A stretch of DNA of 63,977 nucleotides, filler included, from Reclinomonas americana ATCC 50394 (lineage: Eukaryota), in NCBI GenBank assembly GCA_048213135.1. It is 16 parts of 11 records of this genome, joined end to end, with 100 filler letters (N's around TTAATTAATTAA, not from the genome) between each part and the next. Parts side by side here need not be neighbours in the genome. Positions count along the whole stretch, not along the records: positions 9,013 to 16,778 come from PS015863.1; positions 16,879 to 18,112 come from PS015863.1; positions 18,213 to 20,073 come from PS015863.1; positions 20,174 to 22,111 come from PS015864.1; positions 22,212 to 24,045 come from PS015864.1; positions 24,146 to 26,704 come from PS015865.1; positions 26,805 to 28,511 come from PS015865.1; positions 28,612 to 30,743 come from AFZH01015911.1; 8 more parts are not named here. The stretch is one strand, 5' to 3'. The translations under genes and the position numbers were made by a program. Positions 12,201 to 62,498 of this stretch are shown piece after piece; the stretch's first letter is position 1; the number at the start of each line of letters is the position of its first letter. The notes beneath the pieces were generated by a model that ran no database searches, had not been told where the DNA came from, and worked only from the letters and a program-made list of their open reading frames with translations.

Positions 12201-15200
12201 TGCCTCACAGTTGTCACACCACACAGCTTCGACGCATCGGCACCGTTGTGCTGGTGCTCGACGGATATGACGAGTGCAGTAAGGCACCCGGCAACTTGTT
12301 TGTCAACCACGAACTCGATGTTGCGTTGCCATGCCAAGTGGTGTGATATGCACACATGCAGTGGAGTGAATCGACTCACTCAATCGCGTAGAGTTGGCCC
12401 AATGTGCTGCTGGTGGTGTCGGTGCGACGCGAGTTCATCAGCCGCCTCGGCAGCTTCTGGGCTGAAGAGCACTTTGTGCCTGTGGACCCGAAGCTGTCGC
12501 GCGCCGAGCGGCTTCGTCAGTCGGAGCGTACGCTTGTACGATGTATGCTGCGTCTGTTCTCCAAGGACGACATTGATCTCTTCTTGCACAAGTTGAGTGC
12601 CACCGCTGCTCTGCCCTAGGCCTGCTTGTTCACTTGGATTACACATTCATTTTTTGTGTGAGCAGGTTTGTGGAGTCACGAGCGGATCACCCTCGCTCAT
12701 GGGAGCAGTACAAGCAGCAGATCGAGCGCACGCCGGGATTGGATGGACTGGCTTCGTCGGTGAGTCGTTGGTGATGGAAGGAAACAGAGTGCGCAATGAT
12801 ATCGACGCGAAGAGTGTTGTACGAGAGCGACAAGAAAAGTGACAGCGCAACAAAAGAATTTCACATGTGCATGCAGTGGCGGCGGTGGTGCTCACTTTCC
12901 TCCTTTTCCTCACTTTCCATAACAGCCCCTGATGTTGAATATGATTGTTCTGGTGATGGAAGATCTGGAACGGATGCAGCACCGCCATGACGGCGCTGGC
13001 GGTGGTACTGCACTCTCCACGAATCGCGTGACTCGTGCACGGTTGTATGAGGCGTTTGCCAAACACAAACTGCGCTGGGAGTTTGAGCATCACCGAGTGC
13101 ACATTCGTCAGGTGTGCCGTTGGCGGTTGTGGATCACAGTGTGGAATACATGCCTTCTCACACAAATCATTCTTGCACAGTTGTATGGCGACGAAGAATC
13201 GGAAGAGGATTTCTGTCTGCGAGTGTGGGATTTTTGCTCGGAGCTTGCTGGAGAGATGATGCAACACTCGTTGGTATCTGTGCGGCAGGGAAAGCTTGAG
13301 GTCTGTACGTTCAACATGAGAATTGTGCTACAATTCCCGTTCCATCTGCGTTTCTTAGCTCACTCTCCTTCATTCATCACAGCACACTCAACAAGCTGTC
13401 GCGGAGCAGCATGTGTGGAACAAGTGGTTTGATCGTGATGATCCGCTGCAGAACTCCCTCGCTCGTGCTGTTGCGTCGTCATAATGTTCCCTCTCTCATG
13501 GCGATGCATTCCCTGCGTTCACATTCGAGATGCAACACAGGCATTGTTGAAGTGGAGTCGACTTGGAGCATCGCAGCAGCGTGTGGAGTTCATGCACAAA
13601 TCGGTGCTGGAGTACTTTGCCGCTCAGTCGTGGCTGGCCGATGTGCGGTTGTTGGCCGATGAGGAGGTGGAGTTGGAGGTGAGGATTGTCGTGCTTCTCT
13701 GATCATTCATCCTGCATGATTGTCAACCTACCTCGGAGCAGGATCGGCTCGACAGACTATGCGCCAGCTTCACTGGCCAGCGGACACTGCTCACATCGGA
13801 TGAAGTGAGTGCATCCTTTCCATCATTCACTCTCGCGACATGCGCTCATCCCTTCTTCGCTGGCTGCAGGGACTTAATTCCATCCTGTCGTTCGTCGCCG
13901 AGCAAGTGCGGGCTGATCCCTCTCTCCATGACGTACTGTGGAAGGCGATTGCTCTTTCACGCACGGAGGAAAGAGTCGCTTCCCTTTCATCGAGTGCGGC
14001 AAGTACACTGTGTCTCGCGGAGGTGTCGTTCAGTGGGCGCGATATGTCGGGTGTACGACTACCCGGTGCGGATTTAAGAGATGCAGTGATGCACAGGACG
14101 GTGTGGAGGGGAGCGGATATGCGAGGGGTGAATGTGTGCTCGGCCTTTGCGAGAGAGGCGGATTTCACGGGGGCGGATATGACGGGTATGAAGTGGCCGA
14201 GAAAACCAATGGTTGGGCATACTGGAGGGGTGAGTGCGGTTGCCGTAACTTCTGATGGCCAGTATGCCGTGAGCGGTAGCGAGGACAGCACGATTCAAGT
14301 GTGGTCGGTGGCAACTGGCGAGGAGGTTCGCCGGCTGGAAGGCCACACAGATGCGGTGAATGCAGTGGCAGTTACACACGATGGCCAGCGTATTGTGAGT
14401 GGCAGTGATGACATGACTGTACGGGTGTGGTCTGTGGCAAGTGGTGAGGAAGTGTGCCGACTGAAAGGCCACACAGAGTCGGTGAATGCAGTGGCAGTGA
14501 CACCCGACGGCCAGCACGTTGTGAGTGGCAGTGAGGACAAGACTGTACGGGTGTGGTCGGTGGCAAGTGACGAGGAGGTGCGCCGACTGGAAGGCCACAC
14601 TGATTGTGTACGGGCTGTGGCAGTGACACCCGATGGCCAGCACATTGTGAGTGGCAGTGATGACAGGACTATACGGGTATGGTCACTTGCAAGTGGCGAG
14701 GAGGTGCGCCGACTGGAAGGCCACCCTCGTGAAGTCAATGCAGTGGCAGTGACACCCGATGGCCAGCACATTGTAAGTGGCAGTGATGACAAGACTGTAC
14801 GGGTATGGTCACTTGCAAGTGGCGAGGAGGTGCGCCGACTGGAAGGCCACCCTAGTGAAGTCAATGCAGTGGCAGTGACACCCGATGGCCACTTCGTTGT
14901 GAGTGGCAATTATGACAAGACTGTACGAATGTGGTCGGTGGCAAGTGGTGAGGAGGTACGCCGACTGGAAGGCCACACGGATGCAGTGTTTGCAGTGGCA
15001 GTGACACCCGACGGTCAGCACGTTGTGAGTGGTTGTGATGATATGACTGTACGAGTGTGGTCGGTGGCAAGTGGCGAAGAAGTGCGCCGACTGAAAGGCC
15101 ACACGATGTCGGTGTCTGCAGTGGCAGTGACACCTGACGGTCACCACACTGTGAGTGGCAGTGAGGACAAGACTGTACGGGTAAGGTCGGTGACAAGCGG

Positions 15201-16125
15201 CGAGGATGTGCGCCGACTGGAAGGCCACACGGGTGAGGTGAACGCAGTGGCAGTGACACCCGATGGCCAGCTCGTTGTGAGTGGCAGTTGGGACGGAACT
15301 GTGCGAGTATGGTCGCTGGCAAGCGGTGATGAGGTGCGCCGACTGGAAGGCCACACGAGTGGGCCGATTGCAGTGGCAGTGACACCCGATGGCCAGCACA
15401 TTGTAAGTGGCAGTTGGGACAAGACTGTACGGGTGTGGTCGGTGGCAAGTGGCGAGGAGGTGCGCCGACTGGAAGGCCATGCGGGTTATGTGCGGGCTGT
15501 GGCAGTGACACCCGATGGCCAGCACGTTGTGAGTGGCAGTGATGACATGACTGTACGGGTGTGGTCAAGGGCAAGTGGCGAGCAGGTGCGCCGACTGGAA
15601 GGTCACTCGGAGTGGGTGATGGCAGTGGCAGTGACCGCCGATGGTCAGCACATTGTGAGTGGCAGTGCAGATAAGACTGCACGGGTGTGGTCGGTTGCCA
15701 GTGGCGAGGAGGTGCGCCGACTGGAAGGCCACACGCGCGCGGTGCTGGCAGTGACAGTGACACCCGATGGTCAGCACATTGTGAGTGGCAGTGCAGATAA
15801 GACTGCACGGGTGTGGTCGGTTGCCAGTGGCGAGGAGGTGCGCCGACTCGAAGGCCACACGGGATGGGTTTCTGCAGTGGCAGTGACACCCGATGGGCAG
15901 CACATTGTGAGTGGCAGTCGAGACAAGACTGTACGAGTGTGGTCGATGTCGAGTGACGAAGGTGTGCGAGGGCTGGAAGGCCACACGGATGGGATGTGTA
16001 CAGAGGTAGATGGACAGCGTGTTCTTCCAAGATGGAAGGACACACCACTTGCACACCGCAACGGAGAGCTACTCCTGCGCATTCTCGGCTCCTTCCTGCC
16101 TGATTTCACCGGCGTGATTTTGTAA
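9214..16125 (+). CDS. STAND/NACHT NTPase - pentapeptide repeats - 14x WD40 (NWD/NLR-like receptor); start codon unresolved
   Basis: Spliced exons give Walker A VLVVAGWSGGGKS (exon from 11282), Walker B TVVLVLDGYDEC (~12227-12319), LASSPLMLNMIVLV, the winged-helix motif EFMHKSVLEYFAA (~13585-13625), pentapeptide repeats FSGRDMSGVRLPGADLRDA...ADFTGADMTGM and 14 WD40 repeats, ending at TAA 16125. Confidence 0.9.
10495..10552 (+). pseudogene. Frameshifted, misplaced duplicate of the Walker B exon of the NACHT gene
   Basis: CTTCGACGCATCGGCACCGTTGTGCTGGTGCTCGACGGAGTATGACGAGTGCAGTAA matches 12227-12282 except for a 1-nt insertion (GGAGTATG vs GGATATG). It lies upstream of the Walker A exon. Confidence 0.7.
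14209..15972 (+). repeat. Coding tandem array of 14 x 126-nt WD40 units with high nucleotide identity
   Basis: 42-aa unit LEGHxxxVxAVAVTPDGQHxVSGSxDxTVRVWSVASGEEVRR repeated 14 times without introns or indels. Confidence 0.97.
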
Positions 16126-16878
16126 CAAGACAAACGGGAGCTCGTCTGGCAACCCTTAAATGTCCGCCGACTTACGGATTATGCAGGCACGCGTGGACCC
16201 TTATCCTGTCGTGCATGCAATATGCGCCAAGCCGAACTATGTGCTCGGCGTTAACAATGTGCAAAATGACCTCAGCGATCGGACGAATCACAGTACAGGT
16301 TGTTTGTCGTCGCCGCTGGCTGCGTCTATTTCTGATGCAGATGATCTTTGGTCCAGCTGCACCCCGGTCAAGGGTTTCGTGTCGTATTCTTCATGGCGAA
16401 GAGATGCCCTCAGTTACCTGAGATATTCGTCGAGAGTACACTCGTCGAGTTCCTGAAGTACATGTACTCCGTTGTTGGCTGGTGAGAGATGTATCTTCGA
16501 TGCAAGAGATGTCGCTGTATTCTAACGAGTTCACCTGCGCAGCGGATAGCGAAGATCACATACCGCAGCATCTCCATGCAGCACCTGTCCATCACTTGGC
16601 GCAGCTGGTTGCTCTCCATGCCCATCTTCTTCGGCGACGTTCGGTGTGCACATGGGAAAAGGGAAGGGAGGGGGGAAAGGAAGGGATAAGTGGAGAAGGA
16701 GGAGACGGGAGGGGAGGAAAAGGGAATGGAGACGTGAGGAGAAGAGAAGCGAGGGGAAGGGAAGGGAGGAGAGGAGAANNNNNNNNNNNNNNNNNNNNNN
16801 NNNNNNNNNNNNNNNNNNNNNNTTAATTAATTAANNNNNNNNNNNNNNNNNNNNNNNNNNNNNNNNNNNNNNNNNNNN

Positions 16879-18975
16879 CCGCGTCGGTTTGTCCGGACAA
16901 GTAGTGGTGCTGACTGTGCCAGTGGCCTCGTTCCCCTTTGCCACGCCGTCATTTACACTGTTCAAGAACGCCGACTGCCGCGGAAATGTGGCCACCATTA
17001 TCAGCGGCTACAACATCGCGTCTGATGGCACGACCTATACCATCACATGGACATTCGACACGACTGGAGAGCCAACACCAACGAAGCAGCAGTTGTGCAC
17101 GTGCCTGTCATCCACTGACCTGGCAGGCTACTTCAGCATGGCGTCTGTATCCATTTGTTGCGTGAATGCGGAAGATTTTTTGCTGTCAAGTTTACTTCTT
17201 TTTCTTCTAACGAGGCGACCGTGCAGATCGTGTCAAGAGCACATCGGCGCCGTCCATATCCCAGGGCATCAAGTCGCAAACTGTTGTTTTGTCGGGTGGT
17301 GACTTCCCGTTGCTGGCTACAAGTGCCGCCAATGGCAGTAATCCAGTCATACCTGGCGGCACACCACTGGCATTCTTCCTGTCACTCGCCACTGACTGTT
17401 CGTCGATGGACTTGCGGGCGGCTGCCTTTGTGTGGTCACTGCTGTGTCGCCGACGCGTATTACGGCTACGGTTTCCACCATTTCTGCGGTCTCTCTCGCC
17501 TCATGTACGCTGGATCCGCCTGGCACGTATCAGATTTGTGGTCGGTGTGTTACGGAGGGAAAGAGGGAAGGGAGGGGAGGGAGAAAGAGAGAGGGAGGAG
17601 GGGGAGGGTGGGAAGGGGAAAGGGTGGAACGACGGTGAAGAAAGAGAGACAGGGGAGAGAGAGCAGTACCGTTGAGAGAGATACGCGTGAGGGGAAATGG
17701 TGATAGAGAAAGGGCGTGAGAGTGGATGGTGTGGGGCAGAAAGAACAAAGCAGTGGGTACCGGGAGGAGAGATGAAGGAAAGCGGGAGAGGCAGGTGCGC
17801 CACGAAGTATATTGTCTGTATGTGCGAGAGACATGGTAGGATGTGACCGAGAGGGTAGCTGCGAGAGGCAAGAGGGCTGAGGAGCAATAGGGAAAATGAG
17901 AGTGAGAGGCTGCAGATGAGCCACGTATTTGTGAGAGATATGTGAGGATGTGAACAAGAGGGCGGTTGCGAGAGGCAAGAGGGCTGAGGAGCAGTAGGAA
18001 AATAATTTACGGGCTGCTGGTGAGCCACGTATGTGCGAGAGAAATGGTAGGATGTGAATGAGATCTAGAGGGTAGCTGCGAGAGGCAAGAGGACAAAAAA
18101 GCAACAGGAGAANNNNNNNNNNNNNNNNNNNNNNNNNNNNNNNNNNNNNNNNNNNNTTAATTAATTAANNNNNNNNNNNNNNNNNNNNNNNNNNNNNNNN
18201 NNNNNNNNNNNNGAATGTGAATGAGAGGGAAGCTGCGAGAGGCAAGAGGGCTGAGGAACAGTAGGCAACTGACAGTGAGAGATTGCGTGCGCGAATGAAT
18301 GGGACTTTTTGTCATTCTCTTTCATGTTCAACGAGAAAAGTGGAAGGATGGAGAGCATGCAATCTAATGGCGCTTCACCACCATCGACTATTCCACTGAC
18401 AAAATATCTGCGCACAGCTTCCAAGACGGCTCATATGTGCCTCTCGGTGTGCAATTGACCATCACCCCCGTCACCGACCCCGATGTTGGCTTCATTTCTC
18501 CAAAGTCGTTGCCTCTCGGTGTGCCAACTACGTTGATGTTGCATTCGCCATCACGCACGCTGTCGAATTGTACTCGTTTCAAGGTGGTCGACGCTGGGTC
18601 CGACTGCAATGGTCCGGCTTCGGGTGAGTGCTGAAAATGAGAAGATTTTGCGCGGGCGGTGGGTGGAGGAGATCTGTACTCACGGTTCACCCTCTTTGTA
18701 TATCTCTCTCTCTCGTCAGCGGCCCTTGCGCTTACGGCCTTCCAAGACGGCGTGTTTGATGCGTCATCATGCTTCTATGGATCTGTTGCTGGCGGCTGTG
18801 GACAGTTCAAGGTGCAGCTCACGAGCTCCAAGGCGGTGTATGCCACATTCTGTGTGGCAACCACTCCAGGGGCGACGTACAAGGCGGTGTCGAACAGCGA
18901 CATTCGTGTTACCTCGGGTATGCTGGTGCAGACGTCGTCGGTGGTGGCCAACCAGGCGGGGACAATCGTTGCGTG
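16879..18975 (+). CDS. Exons of an extracellular Cys/Thr/Ser-rich beta-sandwich repeat protein (partial; apparent frameshift near 17430)
   Basis: Coding-like blocks 16879-17146, 17227-17540, 18418-18623 and 18720-18975 with a recurring pattern (FTLFKNADCRG, FFLSLATDCSS, FKVVDAGSDCNG) and plausible splice sites. Confidence 0.5.
17785..18260 (+). repeat. Degenerate ~110-120 nt intronic tandem repeat (core GCTGCGAGAGGCAAGAGGGCTGAGGA)
   Basis: Core recurs at ~17858, 17966, 18075 and 18232. Confidence 0.75.
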
Positions 18976-20199
18976 GTGAAGAGGGAGGGTTAAAAGGGGA
19001 AGAGGGAAGGCGGGAGAAGAGGGAAGGGGGGTGAAGAGGGAAGGCGGGTGAAGAGGGAAGGAAGGTGCAGAGGGAAGGGGGGTAAAGAGGGAAGGCTGGT
19101 GAAGAGGGAAGGAAGGTGCAGAGGGAAGAAGGTGAAGAGGGAAGGAAGGTGCAGAGGGAAGGGAGAAAAGAGGGAAGGGGGGAAAGAGGGACGGGAGGTG
19201 AAGAGGGAAGGGGGGTAAAGAGGGAAGGGGGTAAAGAGGGAAAGGGGTAAAGATGGTGGGGGAAAAGAGGGAAGGGGAGGAGGGAGTGAAGACAAGGAGT
19301 AGGGAAGATAATGGGCGATGTGGAAGGATGTGAGACGAGGAGAAGAGAGGTTAGTTGGGAAGGGGAGGAGGGAAGTGAGTCGAGGAGAAGGGGGTTTTGA
19401 AGGCATTTTGCATGGAAGAGACAGAGGGTGGAAGTGTGTTGATGAGAAAGCAAGGGAGAGAGAAACAGACTGAAGAATGTCTGTTGAATTTGTGTGCCTT
19501 GCAAGGGAGGAAAGGCAGAAGGGAGAAAGGGAACAGATTAGCTTTGGAAGTGTGTGGATGGGAACGCGTTGGGGAGTGTAACAAAGAGAAGTGTGTCCGT
19601 GGAGTGTTTGTTGCGCAAGAGAGGACCGTCAGGGGATGAATAGGTTGTGGTAGTATGTGAATGGGGATGCAAACGTTTGAGAGAAAGAGAGTGCCAAGAA
19701 TGGAAAGGAGAAGGAGGAATGGAACGGATTGGTTGTGGCAGTGAGTGCGTGGATGGAGATGTGAAGGAGAGAGAGACAGAGAGAAGTGTGTCGGTGGAGA
19801 TTGGATGGCAAGAGAGAATTGTTAAAGGTGGGGGATGTGACGGATTGGTTGTGGTAGATTGTGCGTGCATGGATGCAAGGAAGAGAAAACCAAAGTGAAG
19901 TGAGGTCGAGGAGATTGCGTGTGTCATGCGAAGAAATGCAGAGGGGGGAGGGAAAGGATTCGTCGTGCTAGATACCGTGTGGATGGATGCAAGGGAGAGC
20001 AGAAGAATGTCTGTGGAAATATATGCGTGTGACAGAGAGAATCGACAGAGGAGGGATGGAACGGATTGGTTGCNNNNNNNNNNNNNNNNNNNNNNNNNNN
20101 NNNNNNNNNNNNNNNNNTTAATTAATTAANNNNNNNNNNNNNNNNNNNNNNNNNNNNNNNNNNNNNNNNNNNNGTGTGTGTGGCAAGGGAGGTTCATCA

Positions 20200-20400
20200 G
20201 ACGTGGGAAGGGAAATGATACCTTGTGGCAGTGTGGATGAGAATGCATTGTAGAGATAGTAACAGTAAGAAGTGTGCCGTGGAGGCAGTGCGTGCACGTG
20301 TGGTAAGAGAGGATCGTCAGAGGTGGGAAGGGAATTGATACTTTGTGGCAGTGTGGATGAGAATGCATTGGCGAGATAGTAACAGTAAGAAGTGCACTGT
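20200..20400 (+). repeat. 120-nt tandem duplication
   Basis: TTGTGGCAGTGTGGATGAGAATGCATTG..GAGATAGTAACAGTAAGAAGTG at 20223 and 20343. Confidence 0.85.
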
Positions 20401-21039
20401 GGAGACTGTGTGTGGCAAGTCAGAGGGGGAAAGGGAAAGCATACGTTGTGGTAGTGTGTGGATTGAATGCTATTGAGAGAGTTACAAAGCGAGTTGTCAA
20501 TGGAGGTTGATTCTGTATGCGAGAGAAAGGTTGGAGGGAGAAGAGAGGAAGGACAGTTTGTCAATACTTGTGGTATTGTGTGACGACGGTAAGAAGGAGA
20601 GAGTGAGATAAGAGGAGCGCATCAGTGGGGATTGGTCTTGTCCTACGAGAGTGAGAGACCGACTGCGGGGAGGAAAGGATTAGTTGTTCTCGTGTGTGAT
20701 GTGAATGCAGCGCATGAGGGGACGGGTTGTGGGTGACAGGAGTGGAAGACTTGAGGAGGGGAATGGCTGAGACTTTTGGGAGTGTGTGCTTGGGGATTCA
20801 ACAGATGAGTGACATAGAGGATTGAAGGTCAACTGTGCGTGTCAGGAGAGGAGGTTGGGGACAGAAGGGAAATGTTGAGGTGCTGTTGATGAGAGAAACA
20901 ACAACAAGAGAGTGAGTCAGAGAGTTTATGTGTGAACCAGAGAGGAGTGGTACGGAGGAGCGGGTTGGATAGCATGACATTCTCAATCGCATGGTGTCCG
21001 CGCCGTACTTGCTGACGTTTGCTTCTTGATTGTGCGACA

Positions 21040-22090
21040 GATGAGCACTGGCACTGGCACTCGCTCCGTGGAGATCACACACCGCTTTGTGCAATCGTTC
21101 CCGGCGATTCCCACTGTGCTGTTTGGCATCTCCGCTCTCTCCAATACGATTGAGGGCGACACTGACATTCGCTGCGCGCGACCGTCGGTCACCAAGTTCA
21201 TGCTGACGGTGCAGTGCTCGGCACTCGGCACTGCGCAGTTCGACTCGCTCGTCACAAGTTTCGTGAGATCGACTTTGTTTTCGTGCACACTTGCATGAAA
21301 CTCACGACCTGCGTGGCAGATTTCATTGCCATGTACGCGGACCCTGCCGCGACGTACACACACGACAACGAGTTGCCGCGTCAGAAAGCTGCCAATGAGT
21401 GGCTGAGCCTGGCCACCGACAAGAATTTCACCACGGTTTGTTGATGCAAGCAGACCTGTACATGGTCCCTGAACTCATTCATCGCAACCACGCGGCTGTG
21501 TGAGCAGGAAGTGGTGAATGCCCATGCGTTCGGGTTTGATGAGATTCCGTCGATTGCGCTGGCGCTGACGGGTGTGCGGTCCATTCGACTCGATCCGAGT
21601 GGCACGGCACGCAGCGACAACCTTGAGGTGGCCGTCGGTGAGGCGGCCGCTGCCACCTCGCAGGTGCTGATGACGGTGCGCGGCGATAGTCGCGTGCAGG
21701 CGTTGGAGCTGCGTTCCATGCTGGTGGGATCGCGGCTGGTGCCGCGTGACAATTCCAGTGGCTACGTGATGGTGTCGGGCGGTGAGTTTGACTGCGAAGA
21801 TTTGCCGGCAGTTGTGCACGATTACTGACCTGGATCACCTTCATGTTGCAGAGAGCACGCTGGTGAGCAACACGCCGGTGGTGGTCACCCTCGTTAGCCG
21901 TCAGTCAACCCGCGGGTTGAAACAGACTGATTTCCACACCGTCGCATTCTTGCGCGGATGGAAGACGACCGGCACTGGTGGTGCATCGCAGGTCAATCCG
22001 TCGATTTTGCCGACAGATGTTGTTCCGTCACAAGGCAGCGCGTCGAGTGGAGCGTACGGGCAGCTGACGGTGACGGCGAGTAGTGGGGCG
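21040..22090 (+). CDS. Exons encoding two tandem H-type lectin-like domains (partial gene, possibly continuous with 16879-18975)
   Basis: RSVEITHRFVQSFPAIPTVLFGISAL...FDSLVTNFIAM and HAFGFDEIPSIALALTGV...VQALELRSML fit the H-lectin pattern FxxxPxVxxxlxxl...xxIAx. Exons are joined by GT-AG introns. Confidence 0.6.
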
Positions 22091-22654
22091 AGAAAGGAGA
22101 AGGGAGGGTAANNNNNNNNNNNNNNNNNNNNNNNNNNNNNNNNNNNNNNNNNNNNTTAATTAATTAANNNNNNNNNNNNNNNNNNNNNNNNNNNNNNNNN
22201 NNNNNNNNNNNGGAGGAAGGGGAAGTACACAGGAAAGGAATGAAAACAGAGAACTTATGGGGGCAAGTGGGTGTGGAGGGAAGGGAGGGAGGGTAAGAGA
22301 GAGAGGGAGGAGAGGAGTGGGGGAGGTGTAGAAAAGAGGTATGTATGTGACGTGGGTGGCGATCGGCATCCCGGCGTGAGAGAGGAGAAGAGTGTGGTTT
22401 GTGGAAGGGAAGTTGGTGAGTACACAGGAAAGGAATGAAAACAGAGAGTGGAGGGGGGAGTCAAGGGTGCACGAGAGCGAGTGCTGAGAAGGGAAGCTGG
22501 GGATAAGTTGGGGAGTAAACGGGAAAGGGAGTGAGAGCAGAGGCGTGGATGAGGTAAGTCGACGCGGATGAGGGAATCAAAGGCGAATAGACGGACGAGA
22601 ATAAAGTCAGATGACTGCACGGAAAGCTAATCTGAGTTGAAGATGAGATGACTG

Positions 22655-23090
22655 AATGAGTGAGCGAGTGAAGGAGACGAACTGAAAGGACGAGCCGAGG
22701 TGTGCAAGATGCACAATTGGAGAATGAGATGGGCGAGTGAGTGAGTGACTGGCGAGGATGGTGAGTGAAGGAGACGAACTGAAAGGAAGAGCCGGAGTGG
22801 GCGAGATGCACGATCGCAGACTGAGGTGGGTGAGGGAGTGAGTGACTGGCGAGGATGGTGAGCGAGTGAAGGAGACGAACTGAAAAGAAGAGCCGAGGTG
22901 TGTAAGATGCACGATTGGANNNNNNNNNNNNNNNNNNNNGAATGAGATGGGCGAGTGAGTGAGTGACTGGCGAGGATGGTGAGTGAGTGAAGGAGAAGAA
23001 CTGATAAAACGAGCCGAAGTGGGCGAGATGCGCGATCGGAGAATGAGATGCATATGGGCGAGTGAGTGAGTGAATGGCGAGGATGGTGGA
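22655..23090 (+). repeat. Degenerate tandem repeat ~95-120 nt (GAGTGAGTGACTGGCGAGGATGGTGAG..GAAGGAGACGAACTGAAA)
   Basis: About four copies read directly. Confidence 0.8.
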
Positions 23091-25864
23091 CTGCATGCAC
23101 ATCAGAATTGTAGGTGAGTGGATACTCGGGAAAGGGAATAAGAGAAAAGTATAATGAGGCATGGACTGTGAGGTGTCATGCATGGTGGGCGGAGTGATCA
23201 TCGACAAGGGGGGAGAATGAAGAGTGAATGGGTGGCAAAGTCGGATGAAATGAGAGGGAAAGCAGTGGAAATACAAGGCAGCGAAGACAGTGGTTGGGAT
23301 GATTTGAGTGCGTGTGAGTGCCTCAGCGGGAGAGTCGATGAGGGAGGATCCGGAGGAGGAAGAGAAGGGAGATGGAAGGACAAGGGAGAGGGAGGGAAAA
23401 GAGATGGCAGTCGAGGTGAAGGGTTGGAGAAGAGAGAGGGAAAAGAGCGCAGAGAAAAATGATGCAGGTTGATGAAGGGTGATGTGAGGGCATGGAAGGA
23501 CAAGGGTGTGGGGCAATTGAGCACAAGAGAGAAGACATGGCAGTCGAAGTGGAGGGTTGGAGAAGAGAAAGAGAGGGGGGAAAGAGAGAGAGCACAGAGA
23601 AGTGCTGCAAGTTGATGAAGCGTGAGATGAGGGAGTGACGATGGTGGCAGAAAGCGCGTGAGCGGTGAGTTTATGCGTGGAAGATATGTAAGGTAGGCGA
23701 CATCATGAATGCATTTGTGAGTGAGTGGATGGAGAAGGAGGCGATACGAGACGAGATGCGGTGATGAGGAGGCAGGGAATGTGTTTTGAGATGATTGAGT
23801 GGATGTGTGAGTGGTGAGGACGGTGAAGCGATGCGTAATGGGGAGTGTGATAGGTGGGCGGAAGAGACTAGGAATGAGGAGTGAGATGCAGAAATGAGAG
23901 AGGACAGAGGACAGAGGAGAGACAGTGCGCGATAGGGCGTTCCTTGACGTGTACCTCAGTCCTCCCTCGGAGAATGAGAAGTGGATGAGCATGAGTGAGT
24001 GAGGATGTTTGGTGGAGAGTGGGGGAGAGATGGAGAAGCAGAAGTNNNNNNNNNNNNNNNNNNNNNNNNNNNNNNNNNNNNNNNNNNNNTTAATTAATTA
24101 ANNNNNNNNNNNNNNNNNNNNNNNNNNNNNNNNNNNNNNNNNNNNCAAGTGAGTGGATGAGCATGAGAGTGCCAACTGTGAGTGAGGATGTTTGGTTGAG
24201 AGGGAAAGAGAGATGTAGAAGCAGAAGTGGAGGTGCGGTGCGGGGGAGTTGCTGGTGAATGAGAAGTGAGTGGTCGAGCATGAGATGAGCCAACTGTGAG
24301 TGAGGATGTTTGGTGGAGAGGGAGAGAGTGAGAGAGATGGAGAGACGGAAGTGGAGGTGCGGTGTGGGGATGTTAGGAGTGAATGAGTAGTAAGTGGATG
24401 AGTATGAGAGTGCCAACTGTTGAGTGAAAATGGTGCGCGGAAAGAGACAGTGAAGTGCAAGGTGAGGTGGGAATGCAAGTGGTGTGTAAATGGTGGACGG
24501 AAAGGTGATTCTATACAAGGAGTCAAGAGACGAGATGAAGTGAGTTGATACGAGAGCGGATGCAGCGCTGATGGCGNNNNNNNNNNNNNNNNNNNNNNNN
24601 NNNNNNNNNNNNNNNNNNNNNNNNNNNNNNNNNNNNNNNNNNNNNNNNNNNNNNNNNNNNNNNNNNNNNNNNNNNNNNNNNNNNNNNNNNNNNNNNNNNN
24701 NNNNNNNNNNNNNNNNNNNNNNNNNNNNNNNNNNNNNNNNNNNNNNNNNNNNNNNNNNNNNNNNNNNNNNNNNNNNNNNNNNNNNNNNNNNNNNNNNNNN
24801 NNNNNNNNNNNNNNNNNNNNNNNNNNNNNNNNNNNNNNNNNNNNNNNNNNNNNNNNNNNNNNNNNNNNNNNNNNNNNNNNNNNNNNNNNNNNNNNNNNNN
24901 NNNNNNNNNNNNNNNNNNNNNNNNNNNNNNNNNNNNNNNNNNNNNNNNNNNNNNNNNNNNNNNNNNNNNNNNNNNNNNNNNNNNNNNNNNNNNNNNNNNN
25001 NNNNNNNNNNNNNNNNNNNNNNNNNNNNNNNNNNNNNNNNNNNNNNNNNNNNNNNNNNNNNNNNNNNNNNNNNNNNNNNNNNNNNNNNNNNNNNNNNNNN
25101 NNNNNNNNNNNNNNNNNNNNNNNNNNNNNNNNNNNNNNNNNNNNNNNNNNNNNNNNNNNNNNNNNNNNNNNNNNNNNNNNNNNNNNNNNNNNNNNNNNNN
25201 NNNNNNNNNNNNNNNNNNNNNNNNNNNNNNNNNNNNNNNNNNNNNNNNNNNNNNNNNNNNNNNNNNNNNNNNNNNNNNNNNNNNCGATTGATCGCAAGCA
25301 GAGTGGCTGACAAGAAGGAGAGCAGATTCCCCGAGAATTACAATGAACACCGAGAATTATTATACAATGGTGTGGTTTCCATATACGATAGGCAGTGGTT
25401 TGTACACAGGCACACAGACTGAGCACAACTGCTGGCGTGTGACCACAGCAGCAACGAGGTGCGCTCTCTCTCACTCTTGATGTCATACGTGAGAGCAGTG
25501 CCCGTCGCTAGCAACGAGAGAGCAAACGACAACAGCAACTACAACAACGATCCATGTAAGCGGTGGAGATGGAGATGGAGATGGAGATGGAGAGAGAGAG
25601 AGAGTGAAAGAGAGAGAAACAACAAAGTGAGCCGCTGCCCCTCTATACCGACAAACAAGCAGGTAGAGTGAACCTGGTTGCGGTCGACAGAGCAGTGACG
25701 ATTTTGCACACACTCTCTCTTGATGCCACGATGCCACACCTGCATGGGTGGATGGAAACGCAGTCAGATCCTCATTTTCTCACAAGTACATCTGCTGTGA
25801 ATGCTGATACTCATCGGAGGGAGAGACGACAACCGAGAGATTGGAGGACATTTGGTTGGATAAG

Positions 25865-26704
25865 AAGAGCTCGAGGGAGAGAGAATGGCTGTGCTTTGTC
25901 TGCATGTACTCCCTGTTCGTTATGTCGTTGGTGCGTGCACTTGGTATGCGAGAGCGAGTTGATTCATAAGAGAGGGAGAGGGAGAAGGAGAGAACGGCTG
26001 TGCTCTCTCAGCTTTGTGCTGTCTGTTCATTGTTGAGTTGTTGTGTGTTCTCGGTATGCGAGCGAGTTGATGCACTGAGAGAGGGAGAGAAAGAAGGAGA
26101 GAACGGCTGTGAGATCTGCTTTGTGCTGTCAATGGTTCGTTGTTGTGTTGTTGTGTGTTCTCGGTATGCGAGCGAGTTGATGCAGTAAGAGAGGGAGAGA
26201 GGGAGAAGGAGAGAACCGCTGTGAGACCTGCTTTATGCTGTCTTTCTGTTCGTTGTTGTTATGTTGTTGAGTGTACTTGGTATGCGAAAGCGAGTCGATG
26301 CAGTAAGAGAGAGAGAGAGAGAAGGAGAGAATGGCTGTGCACGTGAGACCTGCTTTGTGCTCCCTGTTCATCGCTGTTGTGTTTTTGTGTGTACTTGGCA
26401 TGCGAGAGCGAGTTGATGCAGTGAGAGAGGGAGACAAGGAGAGAGTGAGAAACAGAGTGTGTGTGCTGTCTTTGTGCTGTCCTTCTGTTTGGTGTTGTGT
26501 TGCAGCAGTATGCGAGAGCGAGTTGATGCAGCGAGAGAGGGAGAGTGAGAAGGAGAGAATGGCTGTGCTCTCTCTGCTTTGTGCTGTCTTTATGTTCGTT
26601 GTTGTGTTGTTGTGTGTTCTCGGTGTGCGAGAACGAGTCGATGCAGTGAGAGAGGGAGAGAGAGAGAAGGAGAGAACGGCTGTGAGATCTGCTTTGTGTT
26701 GTCT
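25865..26704 (+). repeat. Minisatellite of about seven diverged ~115-125 nt units
   Basis: Recurring GGTATGCGAG(AG)CGAGTTGATGCAG..GAGAGAGGGAGA..AGGAGAGAACGGCTGTG. Confidence 0.9.
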
Positions 26705-27737
26705 NNNNNNNNNNNNNNNNNNNNNNNNNNNNNNNNNNNNNNNNNNNNTTAATTAATTAANNNNNNNNNNNNNNNNNNNNNNNNNNNNNNNNNNNNNNNN
26801 NNNNATTGAATGATTGATTTCGGAGTCGGGGTGCAATGCGGTGGGTGGGGCTAGGCAGGCCGAGAAGCTAAAACAAGAGCCTGCATGATCTGTGCGTTTC
26901 AAAGACAAGCGGTGAAAGCCAGAATGAGCCGTGCCTTGATGACGCAAGATGCGAGCAGAGATAATGAAGTGAGCTATTGGCTACTCAACGCAGCGAGAGA
27001 TGCTTTGCAATACTATTTTACATCTGCCTCAAATTATTGCCACAGTTGTCTCGCCATCACAGTGGGTGTTCTCTCGCGCATGCTGCTTGATAAGAAGGCC
27101 AATCCGGGGAGGCGTCTGAGGAGCTCCCTTCTCCGCCAGTAGACAAGATTGCGTCACGATAAATGAACTTCTTCTACTTCTTCTTCTTCTTCTCGCGCAG
27201 CGTAGAGCATGAGATCATGCATGCAGGGGACGTCAGTCCGTACTCAAGTAAGCAAAACGAAAAGAAGAACGAATACAATGTCGACTGCTCGTTCATTAAC
27301 GTTCAGATAACAGCATAAGTAACAAATGATCCGAATCATCTTTTCACATGGTCGCGGACTCTCTTTCTCACACACACAGACTCTCTCTGTCAGCCCACAC
27401 TCCTTTTCTCGCTCACCATGGTATATAATACACGGCAGCCATTCATCAAGCATGGGCTCGCTGGTAATAGAAAGAAAAAACTTGACAGAAGCCGGTCAAT
27501 TCATCGGACGGGGCATTTGGGGAAGGAGGAACAAGGCAGAGAGAATGAAAAGTCTCACATACAGAAGAAATCCGGATTTCCATCACTGTTGGAATATCAC
27601 GGTCTCGTAAGTGAAAAATGCGATCGTCTTTCCTGTTGAGAATCTGATCGTTCACGTCGATACGTGCTGCTGCCTCAAGACTGGTGGTGGTGTTGATGTT
27701 GATGTTTCTGATGTGATTGCTGTTGCCTGCTGGCTGG

Positions 27738-27815
27738 TGAACAACATCAACAAGAACAACAACAACAACAACAACAATAACAACAACAACTGTATTAATC
27801 CAAACAGCAACACAA
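27738..27815 (+). repeat. (AAC)n microsatellite
   Basis: Direct reading. Confidence 0.9.
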
Positions 27816-27899
27816 CCGCATGATGATGATGATCACCATCTTGAGTGAGCACCACAAGGAACTCGGGCATCACAGGAAAAAGCGAGAGGAATTGAGATG

Positions 27900-30705: not shown

Positions 30706-30743
30706 GGTCAAGGGTCAAGGGTCAAGGGTCAAGGGTCAAGGGT
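30706..30743 (+). repeat. (GGGTCAA)n heptamer array at a contig end
   Basis: About five units run into the linker gap. Confidence 0.85.
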
Positions 30744-30895
30744 NNNNNNNNNNNNNNNNNNNNNNNNNNNNNNNNNNNNNNNNNNNNTTAATTAATTAAN
30801 NNNNNNNNNNNNNNNNNNNNNNNNNNNNNNNNNNNNNNNNNNNATACAAGGAGAGCGCGCGGAGAGTGTGCGTGCGTGCCATGGTCTCCACTCAC

Positions 30896-31315: not shown

Positions 31316-31407
31316 TCGCCTCCGCTGCCTCTCTTATCTCCCTCACACGCGCGCGCACACTGTCGTTGGCCGAGTGAGTGGATTGTCGATATCGCCGCGT
31401 TGAAGAG

Positions 31408-39461: not shown

Positions 39462-39495
<34 letters not shown>

Positions 39496-40257: not shown

Positions 40258-40303
40258 TGTGTGTGTGCGAAACAAGCGATTGTGTTTTATGCACGCCGCC
40301 GCT

Positions 40304-42408: not shown

Positions 42409-42484
42409 TGGGGGAAAACGAAAGAAAAGTATAGTACAATGTGTTTTGATTGGTCCGTTCGTGTTTTCACTTGTGCGTCTGTGC

Positions 42485-44795: not shown

Positions 44796-44921
44796 TGGCG
44801 TTTCTGCGTGCGTTTCTGTAGAGAGAGTTGTCCTCTTTGTCCGGTTGCCGCTCGTCGAAGTCGGAAGTTTTTTTGTCGTTGGAAGCGTGTGCACTTCCGA
44901 GTCGAATTTGTGTGTCGCCCA

Positions 44922-47900
44922 ATGGCCTCCGACAGTGGTCATGTGGTGGAGGAACGTCTCATGCCCGGACTCGTGCGACTCCGCCGCATAAAACGGTCTT
45001 TTTTCTGTCGAAAAACTCCTTGTCTCTCTCCTCTCTCACTCGCACACATACAGACACGATCGCAGTCGCAGTAACGCAACCGGCACCTCTGCGGGCTCCG
45101 CAGTGCACGTGTGGGTTCGTGTCGCAGTGACCACTTTTGTTGTGTTTTGTGTGTGTGTGTGTGTGTGTTGACGGTTCACACAGGAGGCCGAATCGCTGGC
45201 CGCCTTTCCCGTCACTCTGCGCCTCGACTTTTCGCAATGCCGCAACCTGTCGGTCAACCGCACGTCGTGTGCCGCACCACTCACTGTGCACCTGCCCGCG
45301 GGCGCACTGATTGTGGCGGCCGAGTTGCGGGCGATCAGTAGGCAGGCGGCCACCGTGTTTCACTTGGCTGTCGACTGTCGACCTATGCTGCCGCTGGCAC
45401 TGGAGCGCGTCGGTGGTGGCAATGGCGAGGGAGTCACCACGACGACGACTGCTGGTGGTGAAGGAGAAGTCGATCTGCAGCGTCTGTTTGACATGTCGGT
45501 GGCGTCGCACAAGCGGGCTGCACGTCGTGTGCTCTCGTCGCTTGCGGTGGCGCACATGCCACTGGATGCGCTGCGTGAGGCGGTGCTCTCGGATATGAAT
45601 GGCTTCCCGTTCTTTGATTTGGAGTTTCCGCCGCAGCTGGCGTCGGTGGGTGGCAAGTGGGCGGCGGAGCAGCGGCGAGTCGATGGGGCCAGTGGTGCCA
45701 CGTCTGCAGTGGGCGTCGATCAGGACGCGGTGGTGCTCGACGATGCCGCTCGGGTGTACTGGAGGAGGTGAGTGAAGGAGGACGGGGGCGGTCATGCATG
45801 GCGACAAATGCTCACCGTGGTGGATGCACAGACCGTGGCACCTGATTGGACGACCAAAGCTGGATCACGCCGTGCGCAGCGACAGCATTGTGCTGTTCCA
45901 GTCGCACGGGCCTCTGCTGGCCGATGCCGTGCACGGGAGGACGTCGGCGTTTTTGGTGCGTGAGAGGTCGTGCCGTGGTCGCCGACGGGAGAGCACGCTC
46001 ACTTTCTTCCTCGTGCATCAGTTTGCGGTGGCCACCCTGGTGGACCGACCAGCGCTGCTGCAGCGCATATTTTTGACACGACATGTTGACGACGCGGGCG
46101 TGTACAGGGTACGTTTCTGCGCTCATGAGTGATGCCTGCGTGGCAATTGTGGCTAACGCACTTTGTGCTCCCGCAGCTGGCTCTCGTCGACAATGGTGTG
46201 TGGCGGTGTTTTACGGTGGATGATTACATTCCTTGTTATCGGAGTGGAGAGATGGTGTTTACGGAGCCGCCAGCGAGTGGCGCGTTGTGGGTGTTGCTGT
46301 TGGAAAAGTGAGTGTTGTCTCGTTTGGCCAGTGTGATGTGCATTGCGGCTGGTGATTAATCACTCTGCTTGTCGTCACTGCAGAGCTCTGGCCAAGCTGT
46401 TTGGCTCCTATGCCAAGGTATGTGATGCGCTCTTGTGGAGGTCACGCCGCTGCATTGTCGCTGACAATCCCTGCACAGCTGCACGAGGCCTCGGTGGTGG
46501 ACATTCTGCGAGCGCTCACTGGCCTCCCGGTGGATGAGCTCGAAATCCGCAATGCGACCGTGGGCGACGACGAAGCCACCAAGAGAATATGGAAGACCTT
46601 GCGCAGTGTCGCCGACAGCAAGGACTTTGGCACTGGTGCGCTGTGGACGTGCTTTTGCGATAAGGTTTTCTCCTCTTCCTCCTCATGCATGTGCTTCTCT
46701 TTCGTTTGTTGTGCAGCCATCACACGCGACGCACAAGCGCGTTCACGACGAACGGCCGGTGCATCGGCTGGCAGTCCGGTGCTGGAGAGTGCGTACGGTC
46801 TGGTATGCGGACGACCGTACATGGTTCTGGGTGCGTTTCACGAGTGCGGCACACGTCTGGTGCTCATGCGCAACCCGACTGGTGAAGTCAACTGGTGCGT
46901 CGTGTTGTGTTGTGTGCACGCCGCCCCCGTGAATTTCGTCTCTTGTGTCGCTCACTGTGGTGGTTGTAGGAGGGGCGACTGGTCGCACCGCTCGCACAGG
47001 TGTGATTGCTATTGGTTGACGTGCTGCTGCATGGACTTGTCTCACCTGTGTTGCAGATGGACAGCGCAGTCGCGATCCAAGTTTCGCGAAGCCGACGAGA
47101 AACGGGGCGAGTGGTACATGAGTTTTGCGGATTTCGTCAAGTACTTTGCGCACTGTGCCATCTGTCGGTTTGTTTGCTTGTGCATGGTGTGCGCAGATTC
47201 TGTCATCTCACATACCGCTTCTTTTGTTTGGATTGTAGTTACCGCGATTGGTCGGAAGCGCGCGTAAAAGGCACCTTTACTCTCATGCACCCGGGCAGCG
47301 GGCTCAGCACGCCGGTCACCACCACATCGTACACTCTCAATGTGATGCAGCGCAGCCACGTGGTGGTCTCCATGACGCAATTCGACAGCAGTCAGCCAGC
47401 TGTCGACGCCGGTGTGCTGGTGTTGCGCAAGGGAGACGCGCCGGGCGGACAGCTGACGGTGGTGGCCGAGTCGGGTTTGCGCCGGGCACACGATGCTGCG
47501 CCGGTGGAGGCGATTCTGGAGCCCGGAGCGTACCTCGTGGTTCCCATGTTGCGTGCACGCTCTCGTCTGGTGCTCACCCCACCTTCTCACAAGCGGGGTG
47601 CAGAACTACTGGCTGCCTACTCGGTTCGCGAACATCGAGCGAGGACGATGGAGACGGGGAACCGGCGGCACTGCGTCGCAAGGGCGGAGAGAGTCTGGCG
47701 AGGAGGGCAATAGCCGCGGCTCAGGTACTGCTGTAGTTTTATGTGTGCGTGTGTGTTTTGAGACTGAAGCATGATGCAATCACGCAGGAGATATTCTGGA
47801 CGGCGGACGCCGATAGCAACGAGCAGCTGACGGAACAAGAGTTGGCGACGTTACGAACGCTGTTGGCTGAACGCGGTGGTTCCATGTGCTCGCGCCTGNN

Positions 47901-59790: not shown

Positions 59791-62498
59791 TCAGGCAAAG
59801 AACATCTCGAATGCGTCGAGGTCGAGCATCAGCGGGCCCTCGAGTACTCCGCTGGTGACCAGGTCGGCTTCGCGGTGCAGGCCAAAGAGGGCGCCGATCT
59901 TGGCCAGCGCGAGCGAGAATTGCGGCTTTTGTGGCTTGTGGCGCTGCTCAAAGTCCTCCTCCGGGTCCTTGCCCGACATGCGCTTCATCGCTTCCTCGAA
60001 TGGCGTGCCGCTCAGTGTGTAGTGCGTCACGCAGCTGTTGCTCTCTTCGACGGCGGACAGGCGCTTGGCTTCGGCAATGGCGTCGCTGAGGCCGCCCAGG
60101 TGATCGACGAGACCATTCTGCGGGTCCGCAGCGTACGCGTGAGTGCATGCACACACACACAAAACACACAAAAGGAGAACTAAGGGCGGCAAGTACCTCG
60201 ACGGCCTGCGCTCCCGTCCACACGCGACCGTGGCACAGTGGCTCAAACTGCGCGTAGGCGATTCCGCGACCGGCCGCCGCCTTTTCCACAAACGAGTGAT
60301 ACACATTGTCCTGCAGCGATGCGTCAGCCCAACGAGGGTGGAGTGGAAGGGAAAGGGAAGGCGTGCCACAATCGCCAAACCAGCACTTGATCGATGCGAG
60401 CAATCTCAGCCGGTGTCCACGGATTCGCATTGTTGTACAGGTCGCTGGTCTCGCCGCGCACAACCGCCACGTCGTCCGTCACTCCCATCCTGTGGACGGC
60501 GTGTGAGCAGCAGAGGAAACGGCGCACCAAACCACCTCGATGCCTTTTTTCACCATTCACGGAGACGCTTGGCGACGAGCTTGCCGAAAATGACACCAAT
60601 GCTGCCAGTCACCGTCGTCGCCTCGGCAAAAATGGTGTCGGCCGCCATGCTGATGTAGTAGCCACCCGAGGCCGCCACGGATCCCATCGAGACCACCACT
60701 GGCTTGCCGGCCTCGCGCAGTGCGACCACCTCGCGCCAAATGGCGTCCGACGCAATCGCGGAGCCGCCGGGCGAGTCGACACGCATGACCACCGCCTTCA
60801 CGTCCTTGTCGTTGCGGATCTTGCGGAGAAGGGCACACATGCTGTNNNNNNNNNNNNNNNNNNNNNNNNNNNNNNNNNNNNNNNNNNNNNNNNNNNNNNN
60901 NNNNNNNNNNNNNNNNNNNNNNNNNNNNNNNNNNNNNNNNNNNNNNNNNNNNNNNNNNNNNNNNNNNNNNNNNNNNNNNNNNNNNNNNNNNNNNNNNNNN
61001 NNNNNNNNNNNNNNNNNNNNNNNNNNNNNNNNNNNNNNNNNNNNNNNNNNNNNNNNNNNNNNNNNNNNNNNNNNNNNNNNNNNNNNNNNNNNNNNNNNNN
61101 NNNNNNNCGCACGCACGCACACACGCACACACAGTCCCGAGTCAGTCGACTGTGCGCAGTGTGGTTTGCGCGCGAGAAACGACGCAACGTCTCTGCGGCG
61201 ATATTTTCGTTGTCGCTAAAGGGCGCCGCCTGCGCACTGCCTCGCTGAATGACGCCATTGGCGTAGACCAGGGCGATCTTGTCCAGGTGGCGAGCTTGCA
61301 CGACACGCACGGCATTCTTGATTGGCGTGTCGTAGCGCTGGGTGCGCATAAACTCGGTCGACATGATGTACTGGCGCAATCCAATGCATCGCTGGTTCTC
61401 GCGATGAACAAACTCGTCGTCCAGTTCGTCACGGTACCTGCGGATAAACAAGTGAGACCCGAGTCTTCTCCCGCACACAACTGCTACGGGTAGCGCACGC
61501 ACCGGAAGCCATCAATCAAGTTGTTCTCCACCGCCTCAATGGCCGTGTAAGGGCCTGTGTGCACACACACGCACACACAGGATCAGCGATTGTCGTTTGT
61601 GGAAAACGATGGGAAGGCGACATCTGTTTACCCTTGTCGATCAGTGAGCGCACCGTGGCCACCGACATGTGGCGCGCCTTGGCAATGTCGGCAATGACGT
61701 GATCAAGCAGCGAGTCCAAGATGCTGCGCGATGTTTGTTGTTCAGCGCAGCAGCAAACGAAGATCGATGAGTGTGTGCATGGACAACGCAACGAGATCGT
61801 GCTCTCGCGATGGGCGTCCGTGAACTTGCGCTCGGTGAGCACTGGGCGGGTCACAGTGTGAGCACACAGGGGAAAGAAGAAGAGGAGCCCCAAGAGACAC
61901 ACCATTAGCGGCGTTCTTGTATTCCTTTCGAGCGAGGAACTGCGGTTCGACTCCAACTGCGCACAGCGAGTGAGATTCCGAGAGAAAAACACCACCAGCG
62001 GGGAAAAGAAGGACCACGAAACTCTTGTCCAACAGTCCACGCAAGAAGAAGCCACGCGCGGTGACTCCCAGCACATTCACATAACCTGCCACAGCGGTGA
62101 GAGAGCATCCTGCCGAAAATAACAACAACGCAAAGCGCACCAGTTGGATTCACAAAGATCTTGTTGCACGCTGCATTCCCCTCGCCAGTGAGACACACAC
62201 ACACATGCTTGGCGGAAAGATCAAGCTCGTGGTAAAAGACACACACCAGTGGCGAGATAGTACGTGCGAAGATTCGCAGAGCCTTCGCCCATGGAATCCG
62301 AGTGGAAGACAACTGGCTTTTTCTCTGCACACTGCTTCAGCGCCCGTCGCATCTCCTACACACGCACACACAGAGTGAGAGGACAGACAGACACAGACAG
62401 AGGCAGCACGAGAGACACAAGCGGACCTCAATGACAGCGAGTCCACCAAGAGTGAGCGGACCCGGGGGAAACTCGGCGTGCACAATGACCTTTTTCAC
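59791..62498 (-). CDS. sppA: Signal peptide peptidase SppA (protease IV, S49), two-domain long form; 5' truncated
   Basis: N-domain [15 protein letters not shown] and EYKNAAN (catalytic Lys); C-domain [40 protein letters not shown] (catalytic Ser), [29 protein letters not shown]. Confidence 0.95.

Follow-up and report, generated by a model that had tools for sequence, protein, structure and literature searches.

The stretch of Reclinomonas americana ATCC 50394 DNA analysed here (63,977 nucleotides (nt), filler included, from assembly GCA_048213135.1; hereafter, the window) raises the question of how a spliceosome handles a large set of introns whose 5' splice sites (donors) begin with GTTGCGT or a close relative of it. 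A preliminary description had proposed that such donors are abundant and that each equals an ordinary donor of this genome with one extra T, so that the usual +5G is found at +6. This description held: 26 of the 99 short introns in our gene models, and 17 of the 77 introns that the reading frame requires, start in this manner, a proportion of about 22-26%, or close to one short intron in four in the window. These donors probably constitute a second, tight donor class, /GUU(G or U)CG(U or C) and mostly /GUUGCGU (the slash marks the cut), which is read by a one-base shift of the donor-reader frame, and the introns that carry them are predicted GT-AG introns of the major (U2-type) spliceosome. 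The existence, abundance, boundaries and composition of the predicted class, its loss of G at position -1 (-1G) and the identity of its 3' signals with those of ordinary introns are documented in the following sections.

A second donor class in the gene models

Genes were modelled with a donor-blind finder that scored coding sequence with a periodic Markov model, acceptors with a matrix and introns with a length prior, and that required only GT of the donor. In earlier versions of the finder, scoring by codon usage only broke the genes with short exons, and a version scoring intron composition drifted into low-complexity DNA and was dropped. The donor-blind run yielded 95 introns, in which the commonest donor hexamer was GTTGCG (9), followed by GTGCGT (7). 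When a mixture of two position matrices was fitted by expectation-maximization to the 86 donor-blind donors of introns of up to 130 nt, the donors separated into ..G/GTgcGt (62%) and c../GTTgcGtg (38%); this split was unsupervised and received no prior hint of a shifted class. In a refined round, in which the learnt donor mixture was fed back to the finder, 102 introns were obtained, 99 of which are 130 nt or shorter (short introns).

Donors were classified as canonical (+5G), shifted (+3T and +6G without +5G) or other (neither). The short introns comprise 64 canonical, 26 shifted and 9 other donors, and the corresponding numbers among the 77 frame-required introns are 51, 17 and 9, respectively. 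The shifted donors are highly uniform, with G (20) or T (6) at +4, C (25) or A (1) at +5, G at +6 in all 26, and T (23) or C (3) at +7, and this class is far narrower than the canonical class, in which +3 and +4 are variable and positions +3 to +6 are most often occupied by G, C, G and T. Positions +4 to +7 of the shifted donors match positions +3 to +6 of the canonical donors, with a base other than G at +5. Of the 38 donors that carry +3T, 26 show +6G without +5G, 11 show +5G only and 1 shows both, whereas +6G without +5G occurs in just 1 of the 61 donors without +3T; the extra base is T only. The possibility raised in the preliminary description, that the frequency of GTTGCG could be explained by independent base frequencies at +3 to +6, was examined on the short introns: GTTGCG was found 19 times against 0.76 expected, and base frequencies do not account for it.

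If retained, 17 of the 26 shifted introns would disrupt the reading frame. The score of the gene models drops by 66 units when shifted donors are disallowed and by 52 when GTGCG donors are, an ablation that discriminates weakly because GC-rich frames offer alternative paths.

Loss of G at the last exon position

The two classes differ not only downstream but also upstream of the cut, a regularity that goes beyond the preliminary description. In the refined set, -1G is present in 60 of the 64 canonical donors but in only 2 of the 26 shifted donors (Fisher p = 1.3e-15). Since the refined round used positions -3 to -1, the counts were also obtained for the frame-required introns (47/51 canonical versus 2/17 shifted), for the donor-blind set (31/42 versus 1/16; p = 3e-6) and for every occurrence of the motifs in the window, donor or not (58 of 185 for GTGCGY versus 5 of 48 for GTTGCGY; p = 0.003). 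The 12 canonical donors that have +3T (GTTGGT, GTTCGT, GTTTGT and GTTTGG) all retain -1G; the loss of -1G therefore follows the register and not +3T. The -1G of canonical donors is unusually strict in this window, where GTGCGT is the commonest canonical form and GTAAGT, the perfect U1 complement, occurs once among the 102 introns.

Because the shifted donors are nearly devoid of -1G, both classes fit a single 7-base template, G-[G/T]-T-N-N-G-T, with cleavage in front of its first GT. Its first base is exon position -1 in ordinary donors (G/GTGCGT) and intron position +1 in shifted donors (/GTTGCGT). In line with an offset of one position, G is rare at -2 of the canonical donors (8/64) and at -1 of the shifted donors (2/26).

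The shifted introns and their genes

Pfam searches on open frames identified an NTPase/WD40 gene (about 11.1-16.1 kb, +), an armadillo-repeat (ARM) gene (31.4-35.7 kb, +), a cysteine synthase (PALP) gene (40.3-42.4 kb, -) and an S49 (SppA) peptidase gene (59.8-62.5 kb, -), together with further calpain-like, ISCU and Myb/DIRP genes. The 15 GTTGCGY sites claimed as donors in the preliminary description are all present in the sequence at their positions and on their strands, and 14 of them are donors in the self-trained gene models, including those of the first four introns of the ARM gene (31475, 31785, 31991 and 32134); the fifteenth, at 61188, was not recovered. The five sites that had been described as related shifted forms (12592, 42258, 9524, 21258 and 62022) were all recovered, four of them in the refined models and 42258 by homologue-guided alignment only. 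The refined models add GTTGCGT donors at 17157, 42844, 43741, 47548 and 55938 and GTTTCGY donors at 44621, 56630 and 58213. The predicted shifted introns are as follows; 'both models' denotes the donor-blind and the refined models.

9524-9591, +, GTTTCGT intron; both models, frame-required
12320-12391, +, GTTGCGT intron of the NTPase/WD40 gene; refined model, in-frame stop if retained
12592-12665, +, GTTGAGT intron; both models, frame-required
13470-13540, +, GTTGCGT intron; both models, frame-required
17157-17226, +, GTTGCGT intron, newly added; both models, length not a multiple of 3
21258-21319, +, GTTTCGT intron; both models, frame-required
31475-31564, +, ARM intron 1, GTTGCGT; refined model, 90 nt, stop-free and not frame-required; CA-repeat content, CTCAC and CAG read directly
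31785-31874, +, ARM intron 2, GTTGCGT; refined model, in-frame stop if retained
31991-32050, +, ARM intron 3, GTTGCGT; both models, not frame-required
32134-32200, +, ARM intron 4, GTTGCGC; both models, frame-required
33607-33672, +, ARM intron within the ARM repeats, GTTGCGT; refined model, not frame-required
34633-34712, +, ARM intron, GTTGCGT; refined model, frame-required
37153-37212, -, GTTGCGT intron of the gene at 35760-38518; refined model, stop if retained
38086-38146, -, GTTGCGT intron; refined model, length not a multiple of 3
40477-40550, -, cysteine synthase intron 14, GTTGCGC; 4 of 5 homologues under GT..AG only, conserved GERYLS restored
41550-41611, -, cysteine synthase intron 6, GTTGCGT; 5 of 5 homologues, frame-required
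41775-41861, -, cysteine synthase intron 4, GTTGCGT; 5 of 5 homologues, LAFVAAAR restored
42153-42258, -, cysteine synthase intron 1, GTTGTGT; 4 of 5 homologues, MEPCSSVK restored
42776-42844, -, GTTGCGT intron, newly added; both models, not frame-required
43672-43741, -, GTTGCGT intron, newly added, one of the two shifted donors with -1G; both models, frame-required
44559-44621, -, GTTTCGT intron, with a second shifted-type motif, GTTGCGT, overlapping 5 nt downstream; both models
47548-47603, +, GTTGCGT intron of the calpain-like gene, newly added; refined model, length not a multiple of 3
55938-56000, +, GTTGCGT intron of the DIRP/LIN9-like gene, newly added; refined model, not frame-required
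56630-56692, +, GTTTCGT intron; refined model, not frame-required
58213-58273, +, GTTTCGC intron; both models, frame-required
61182-61188, -, GTTGCGT, claimed donor not recovered in the models; adjoins the N gap at 60846-61107
61724-61792, -, SppA (peptidase S49) intron, GTTGCGT; 4 of 4 homologues under GT..AG only
61957-62022, -, SppA intron, GTTTCGT; 4 of 4 homologues

Protein-guided placement of the junctions

Junctions in the cysteine synthase and SppA genes were also placed with our own protein-to-genome spliced aligner, whose splice signals are GT and AG only and which assumes no donor motif, using five cysteine synthase and four SppA homologues as queries. The identical 14 donors of the cysteine synthase gene were chosen with four of the five homologues; with the fifth, a long plant model, the 5' end differs and the alignment ends before the last intron. 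Four of the 14 donors are shifted (GTTGTGT at 42258, GTTGCGT at 41861 and 41611, and GTTGCGC at 40550), those at 41861 and 41611 being chosen with all five homologues and the other two with four. In SppA, 62022 (GTTTCGT) and 61792 (GTTGCGT) were chosen with all four homologues. Alignment constrained by nothing more than GT..AG and homology in these two genes therefore supports six of the predicted shifted donors independently.

Each cysteine synthase junction was then moved by -3 to +3 and rescored. The GT..AG junctions give back the conserved residues MEP-CSSVK, LAF-V-AAAR and GER-Y-LS. Introns starting with TT were rejected as a candidate: the +1 slide (TT..) scores lower at all four of the cysteine synthase junctions and swaps out the conserved P, V and Y. 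Some slides of -1 or -2 yield the same mRNA, as in the usual junction ambiguity, but with ends other than GT.

At the unrecovered site 61188, an intron would be just 39 nt long or would run into the N gap; the SppA alignments end at 61185, 61179 and 61170, and the donor-blind model places 61188 within an 88-nt GTGCGC intron beginning at 61237.

Excess of the motif in the window

The shifted motif is also in excess when it is counted irrespective of gene models. Relative to 100 dinucleotide-preserving shuffles of the window, GTTGCGY occurs 48 times against 21.48 +/- 4.40 (shuffle maximum 31), GTTGCGT 31 times against 10.45 +/- 3.43 (maximum 18) and GTTTCGT 16 times against 7.32 +/- 2.58 (maximum 13). 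Nineteen of the 48 GTTGCGY sites are donors in the gene models. The remaining 29, a number near the chance expectation, are distributed outside the models (9), in sense exons (9), antisense to exons (6), in sense introns (4) and antisense to an intron (1).

Unspliced GTTGCGY sites in sense exons include GTTGCGC at 34027, 47422, 43619, 38241, 35847 and 35814 and GTTGCGT at 18968 and 31878. The last base is C at six of the nine sense-exon sites but T at 17 of the 19 donors. A T at +7 may therefore contribute, and GTTGCGY by itself does not suffice for donor use in the gene models.

The 12-mer GTTTCGTTGCGT is found at two introns, at 44610-44621 (-) and 31780-31791 (+). Two shifted-type donors overlap in it with an offset of 5 nt, of which the models use the first at 44621 and the second at 31785. 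Another likely member of the shifted class, 56 nt long, lies at 5479-5534 (+), where GTTGCGT is followed by CTCAC and then by TTTTTGCAG, in a contig without a confident gene model.

Shared 3' signals and intron type

Apart from their donors, the shifted introns resemble the canonical ones. The median lengths are 68 and 69 nt, respectively, and the GC content is 0.54 in both. A CTNAY branch-type motif, mostly CTCAC or CTCAT, is present in the last 50 nt of 18 of the 26 shifted and 49 of the 64 canonical introns, with a median distance to the acceptor of 18 nt in both classes, and the acceptor is CAG in 22 and 56 of them, respectively. The exact GT..AG junctions, together with a branch motif and a 3' end like those of the bulk of introns, are features of U2-type introns. 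The numbers of introns in phases 0, 1 and 2 are 5, 14 and 7 for the shifted class and 30, 20 and 14 for the canonical class; the two distributions differ somewhat.

U12-type introns have /RTATCCTT donors and a constrained branch site similar to TCCTTAAC. Like the shifted introns, they occur in the same genes as the main donor class and form a second class whose consensus is much tighter. They were rejected as an identity for the introns described here, which have GTTGCGT or GTTTCGT donors and the same branch motifs as canonical introns (CTCAC, CTCAT and CTGAC); the CTCAY-type motif lies at the same distance as in canonical introns, and no separate branch-site reader is indicated.

Introner elements, as found in Micromonas and Aureococcus, likewise comprise many introns with a common characteristic donor. 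They too were rejected: an intron-versus-intron blastn comparison of the 99 introns gave six matches (three reciprocal pairs), none involving a shifted intron, and the shifted introns, unlike introner elements, do not resemble other introns beyond the donor.

How the shifted donors may be read

If the common template has a single reader, that reader would bind in the same frame on both donor classes, and the likeliest candidate is the 5' end of the U1 small nuclear RNA (snRNA). In the shifted class, +1G would pair with C9 of U1, taking the place of the usual -1G, and +2U would face C8; U6, U5 and Prp8 would later set the cut at the only GU on offer. We infer both that U1 reads the template and that a single U1 handles the two classes. 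A one-base shift is favoured over a bulged helix because +1G then replaces -1G, which predicts the loss of -1G.

Several points weigh against this account. The gene models come from an ad hoc finder of our own, self-trained on about 59 kb, and the refined round, in which the fed-back mixture includes positions -3 to -1, can sharpen the classes. Nine of the 26 shifted introns are stop-free multiples of 3 and are not frame-required; they are called on coding potential, intron signals or homology, and two of the nine (61792 and 62022) are backed by homology. Duplex energies were calculated with ViennaRNA duplexfold against the textbook U1 5' end, from which the organism's own U1 may differ. The mean is -1.36 kcal/mol for shifted donors compared with -6.65 for canonical donors, with hardly any stable shifted duplex in any register, and +1G is unpaired in 15 of the 26 shifted donors and paired with C9 in only 3. 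At exon positions -1 to -3 of the shifted class, no clear match to the bases that follow in U1 is seen, and the near-invariant +5C (25/26) is not accounted for by standard U1 pairing. Because the duplexes are weak, a standard U1 in the shifted register is not clearly sufficient. Two readings remain: a weak mode that is tolerated only if all other positions are optimal, or a second or lineage-specific U1 whose 5' end pairs with +2U. On simple reasoning, if A replaced the C that faces +2 in U1, GUUG would form four stacked pairs, as GGUG does with normal U1.

The second of these is the most serious competitor, although clearly less likely than the one-base shift: a dedicated variant U1 snRNA, with its 5' end altered at the base facing +2, would read the shifted class, GUUGCGU pairing with it as strongly as GGUGCGU pairs with the usual U1, and the rest of the major spliceosome would be shared. 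Such a partner would suit the very narrow class (+4 G in 20 and T in 6, +5C in 25/26, +7T in 23/26), which resembles continuous base pairing; it would also suit the near absence of a duplex with textbook U1 and the loss of -1G, as expected of a partner whose pairing begins at +1. With common 3' signals, only the donor reader would differ. A narrow consensus is, however, also expected if weak recognition is compensated at every other position. We know of no organism in which a second U1 handles a large proportion of the introns, which counts against this alternative. An Rfam scan of the window returned no match at the gathering thresholds and no snRNA gene, and at E <= 0.1 it returned only low-complexity look-alikes of microRNAs and untranslated regions. 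Human variant U1 genes with altered sequences do exist (PMC3561869, PMC10870369). It is conceivable, if not the expected outcome, that the organism possesses two U1 snRNAs, or one U1 with a non-universal 5' end, with a G/GUNNGU reader and a /GUUGCGU reader that serves about a quarter of the introns.

The sequence of each shifted donor is that of an ordinary donor plus one U, and it could also be read by standard U1 in the usual frame if the U at +2 or +3 bulges out, a register ('bulge +2/+3') that has been proven in human cells (PMC4856993). We regard this as unlikely. A bulge leaves C9 free for -1G, and in a weak helix -1G should be favoured; a bulge therefore predicts that -1G is kept or enriched, the opposite of the observed fall from 60/64 to 2/26 (31/42 to 1/16 in the donor-blind set). 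The predicted duplexes are, moreover, unstable.

Still less probable is the absence of any special pairing, in which case U6, U5, Prp8 or proteins would accept GU followed, with variable spacing, by a GY(G)U element and the shifted class would be a compositional or mutational by-product. The canonical donors themselves are far from the U1 complement, as the single GTAAGT illustrates, their duplex energies are modest, and neither +5G nor +6G is present in 9 of the 99 donors. The extra base is, however, confined to T (the 1 exception among 61 donors without +3T was given above), and strict coupling to the loss of -1G is unexpected if the spacing is loose.

The least probable explanation is an artefact of misplaced junctions, false introns in GC-rich open frames or assembly errors adding T: the models are home-made, the assembly is fragmentary, nine shifted introns are not frame-required and the ablated model still finds other paths, but six shifted donors are fixed by homologue alignment with conserved junction residues, 17 of the 26 are frame-required and the motif excess over the shuffles is independent of gene models. 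An added T can be rejected by reasoning: once it is taken out, the donors become GTGCGT sites lacking -1G, a base that 60 of the 64 canonical donors possess.

Comparison with known systems

Human 5' splice sites recognized by U1 shifted by one base were reportedly described by Roca and Krainer in 2009, and the bulge +2/+3 register of human sites is said to have been reported by Roca et al. in 2012. As in the window, human shifted-register sites start with GU and carry the usual +3 to +6 bases one position deeper; their +1G is thought to pair with C9 of U1, and the cut is set later, not by U1. The differences are of frequency and of form. What is a rare exception in human accounts for about 22-26% of introns here, the consensus here is a fixed GUUGCGU rather than GU(N)AAGU, and pairing with textbook U1 is much weaker here because the pairs are isolated. 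The shifted register has been shown for a few human sites, whereas the class described here is predicted from sequence. All validated noncanonical registers together account for 1.5% of 201,541 human donors, and the shifted-register model oligo of the same study, ACA/GUCAAGUAUA, likewise has no -1G (PMC4856993). The human bulge +2/+3 sites (Tan et al. 2016, PMC4856993), of which 68 were predicted and 54 curated among the same donors, also consist of a normal donor with an extra U after GU, but the bulge keeps -1G for pairing, whereas -1G is nearly absent here.

The main donor class of the window has a G/GTGCGT flavour, and GCGT after GT is a known preference at the lineage level: the donor consensus of Mamiellophyceae is GTGCGTG in Ostreococcus (PMC2483917), and AG/GTGCGT is given for Micromonas (PMC3879977). 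These algae are intron-poor outside an outlier chromosome, unlike the present window with 15 introns in a 338-codon gene, and the parts of these two articles used here do not mention a T-shifted class. Donor recognition is also atypical for a large proportion of introns in appendicularian tunicates, where 95% do not follow the GT/AG rule and where the authors ask whether U1 may bind in a shifted register (PMC13326754). In the window, by contrast, GT-AG is retained and the change is confined to the register of the bases behind it. No description of a T-shifted donor class was found in the portions of the splice-site literature consulted, which concerned human, tunicate and Mamiellophyceae splicing along with unrelated subjects such as fungal stwintrons, and a lineage-specific genome paper or supplement could hold one.

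Shifted and bulged U1 registers are known only as rare mammalian exceptions in the material drawn on here (PMC4856993). If the one-base shift is correct, the register of donor recognition can turn into a routine, selected mode with a sequence (GUUGCGU) and a rule (no -1G) of its own, and the organism would offer a natural system for examining how the cut is set independently of U1 pairing and whether U1 paralogues divide introns among themselves. If two U1 snRNAs are involved, this would be a two-reader 5' splice-site system within one spliceosome, distinct from the U11/U12 minor system. Gene finders that use a single position matrix would misplace about one junction in four in the organism studied.

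Gene content and composition of the window

The window is a chain of about 16 short contigs, separated by spacers of 100 bases that consist of 44 N, TTAATTAATTAA and 44 N; identical copies are located at 4361-4460, 8913-9012, 16779-16878 and 12 other places, and the spacer is a six-frame stop linker. Further N gaps occur within some contigs. Contigs frequently end in GA or GGA microsatellites, and adjoining pieces are not necessarily genomic neighbours.

The introns of the window are short (median 68-69 nt) and very densely packed. The cysteine synthase gene (40304-42408, -) contains 15 introns of 51-106 nt per 338 codons and includes a 19-nt exon at 42134-42152; its product is about 60% identical to plant enzymes, and the top match of a single exon used as a query has 77% identity (plants and bacteria). 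An exon of the ARM gene gave three matches, the top one being a protein of the pelagophyte Chrysophaeum taylorii (43%), and a protein search with the DIRP exon gave no match. Matches of the WD40 exon in metagenomes were generic WD40 proteins of at most 52% identity.

Several contigs in the region 16879-30743 are purine-rich on the + strand and show strong GC skew, GA-rich repeats and a GC content down to 0.38; these contigs contain few or zero confident genes. In the NTPase/WD40 gene (11078-16125, +), a STAND-type NTPase N-terminus is followed by an intron-free WD40 exon of 639 codons with 14 repeats, and this combination of NTPase and WD40 domains is common in fungi and cyanobacteria.

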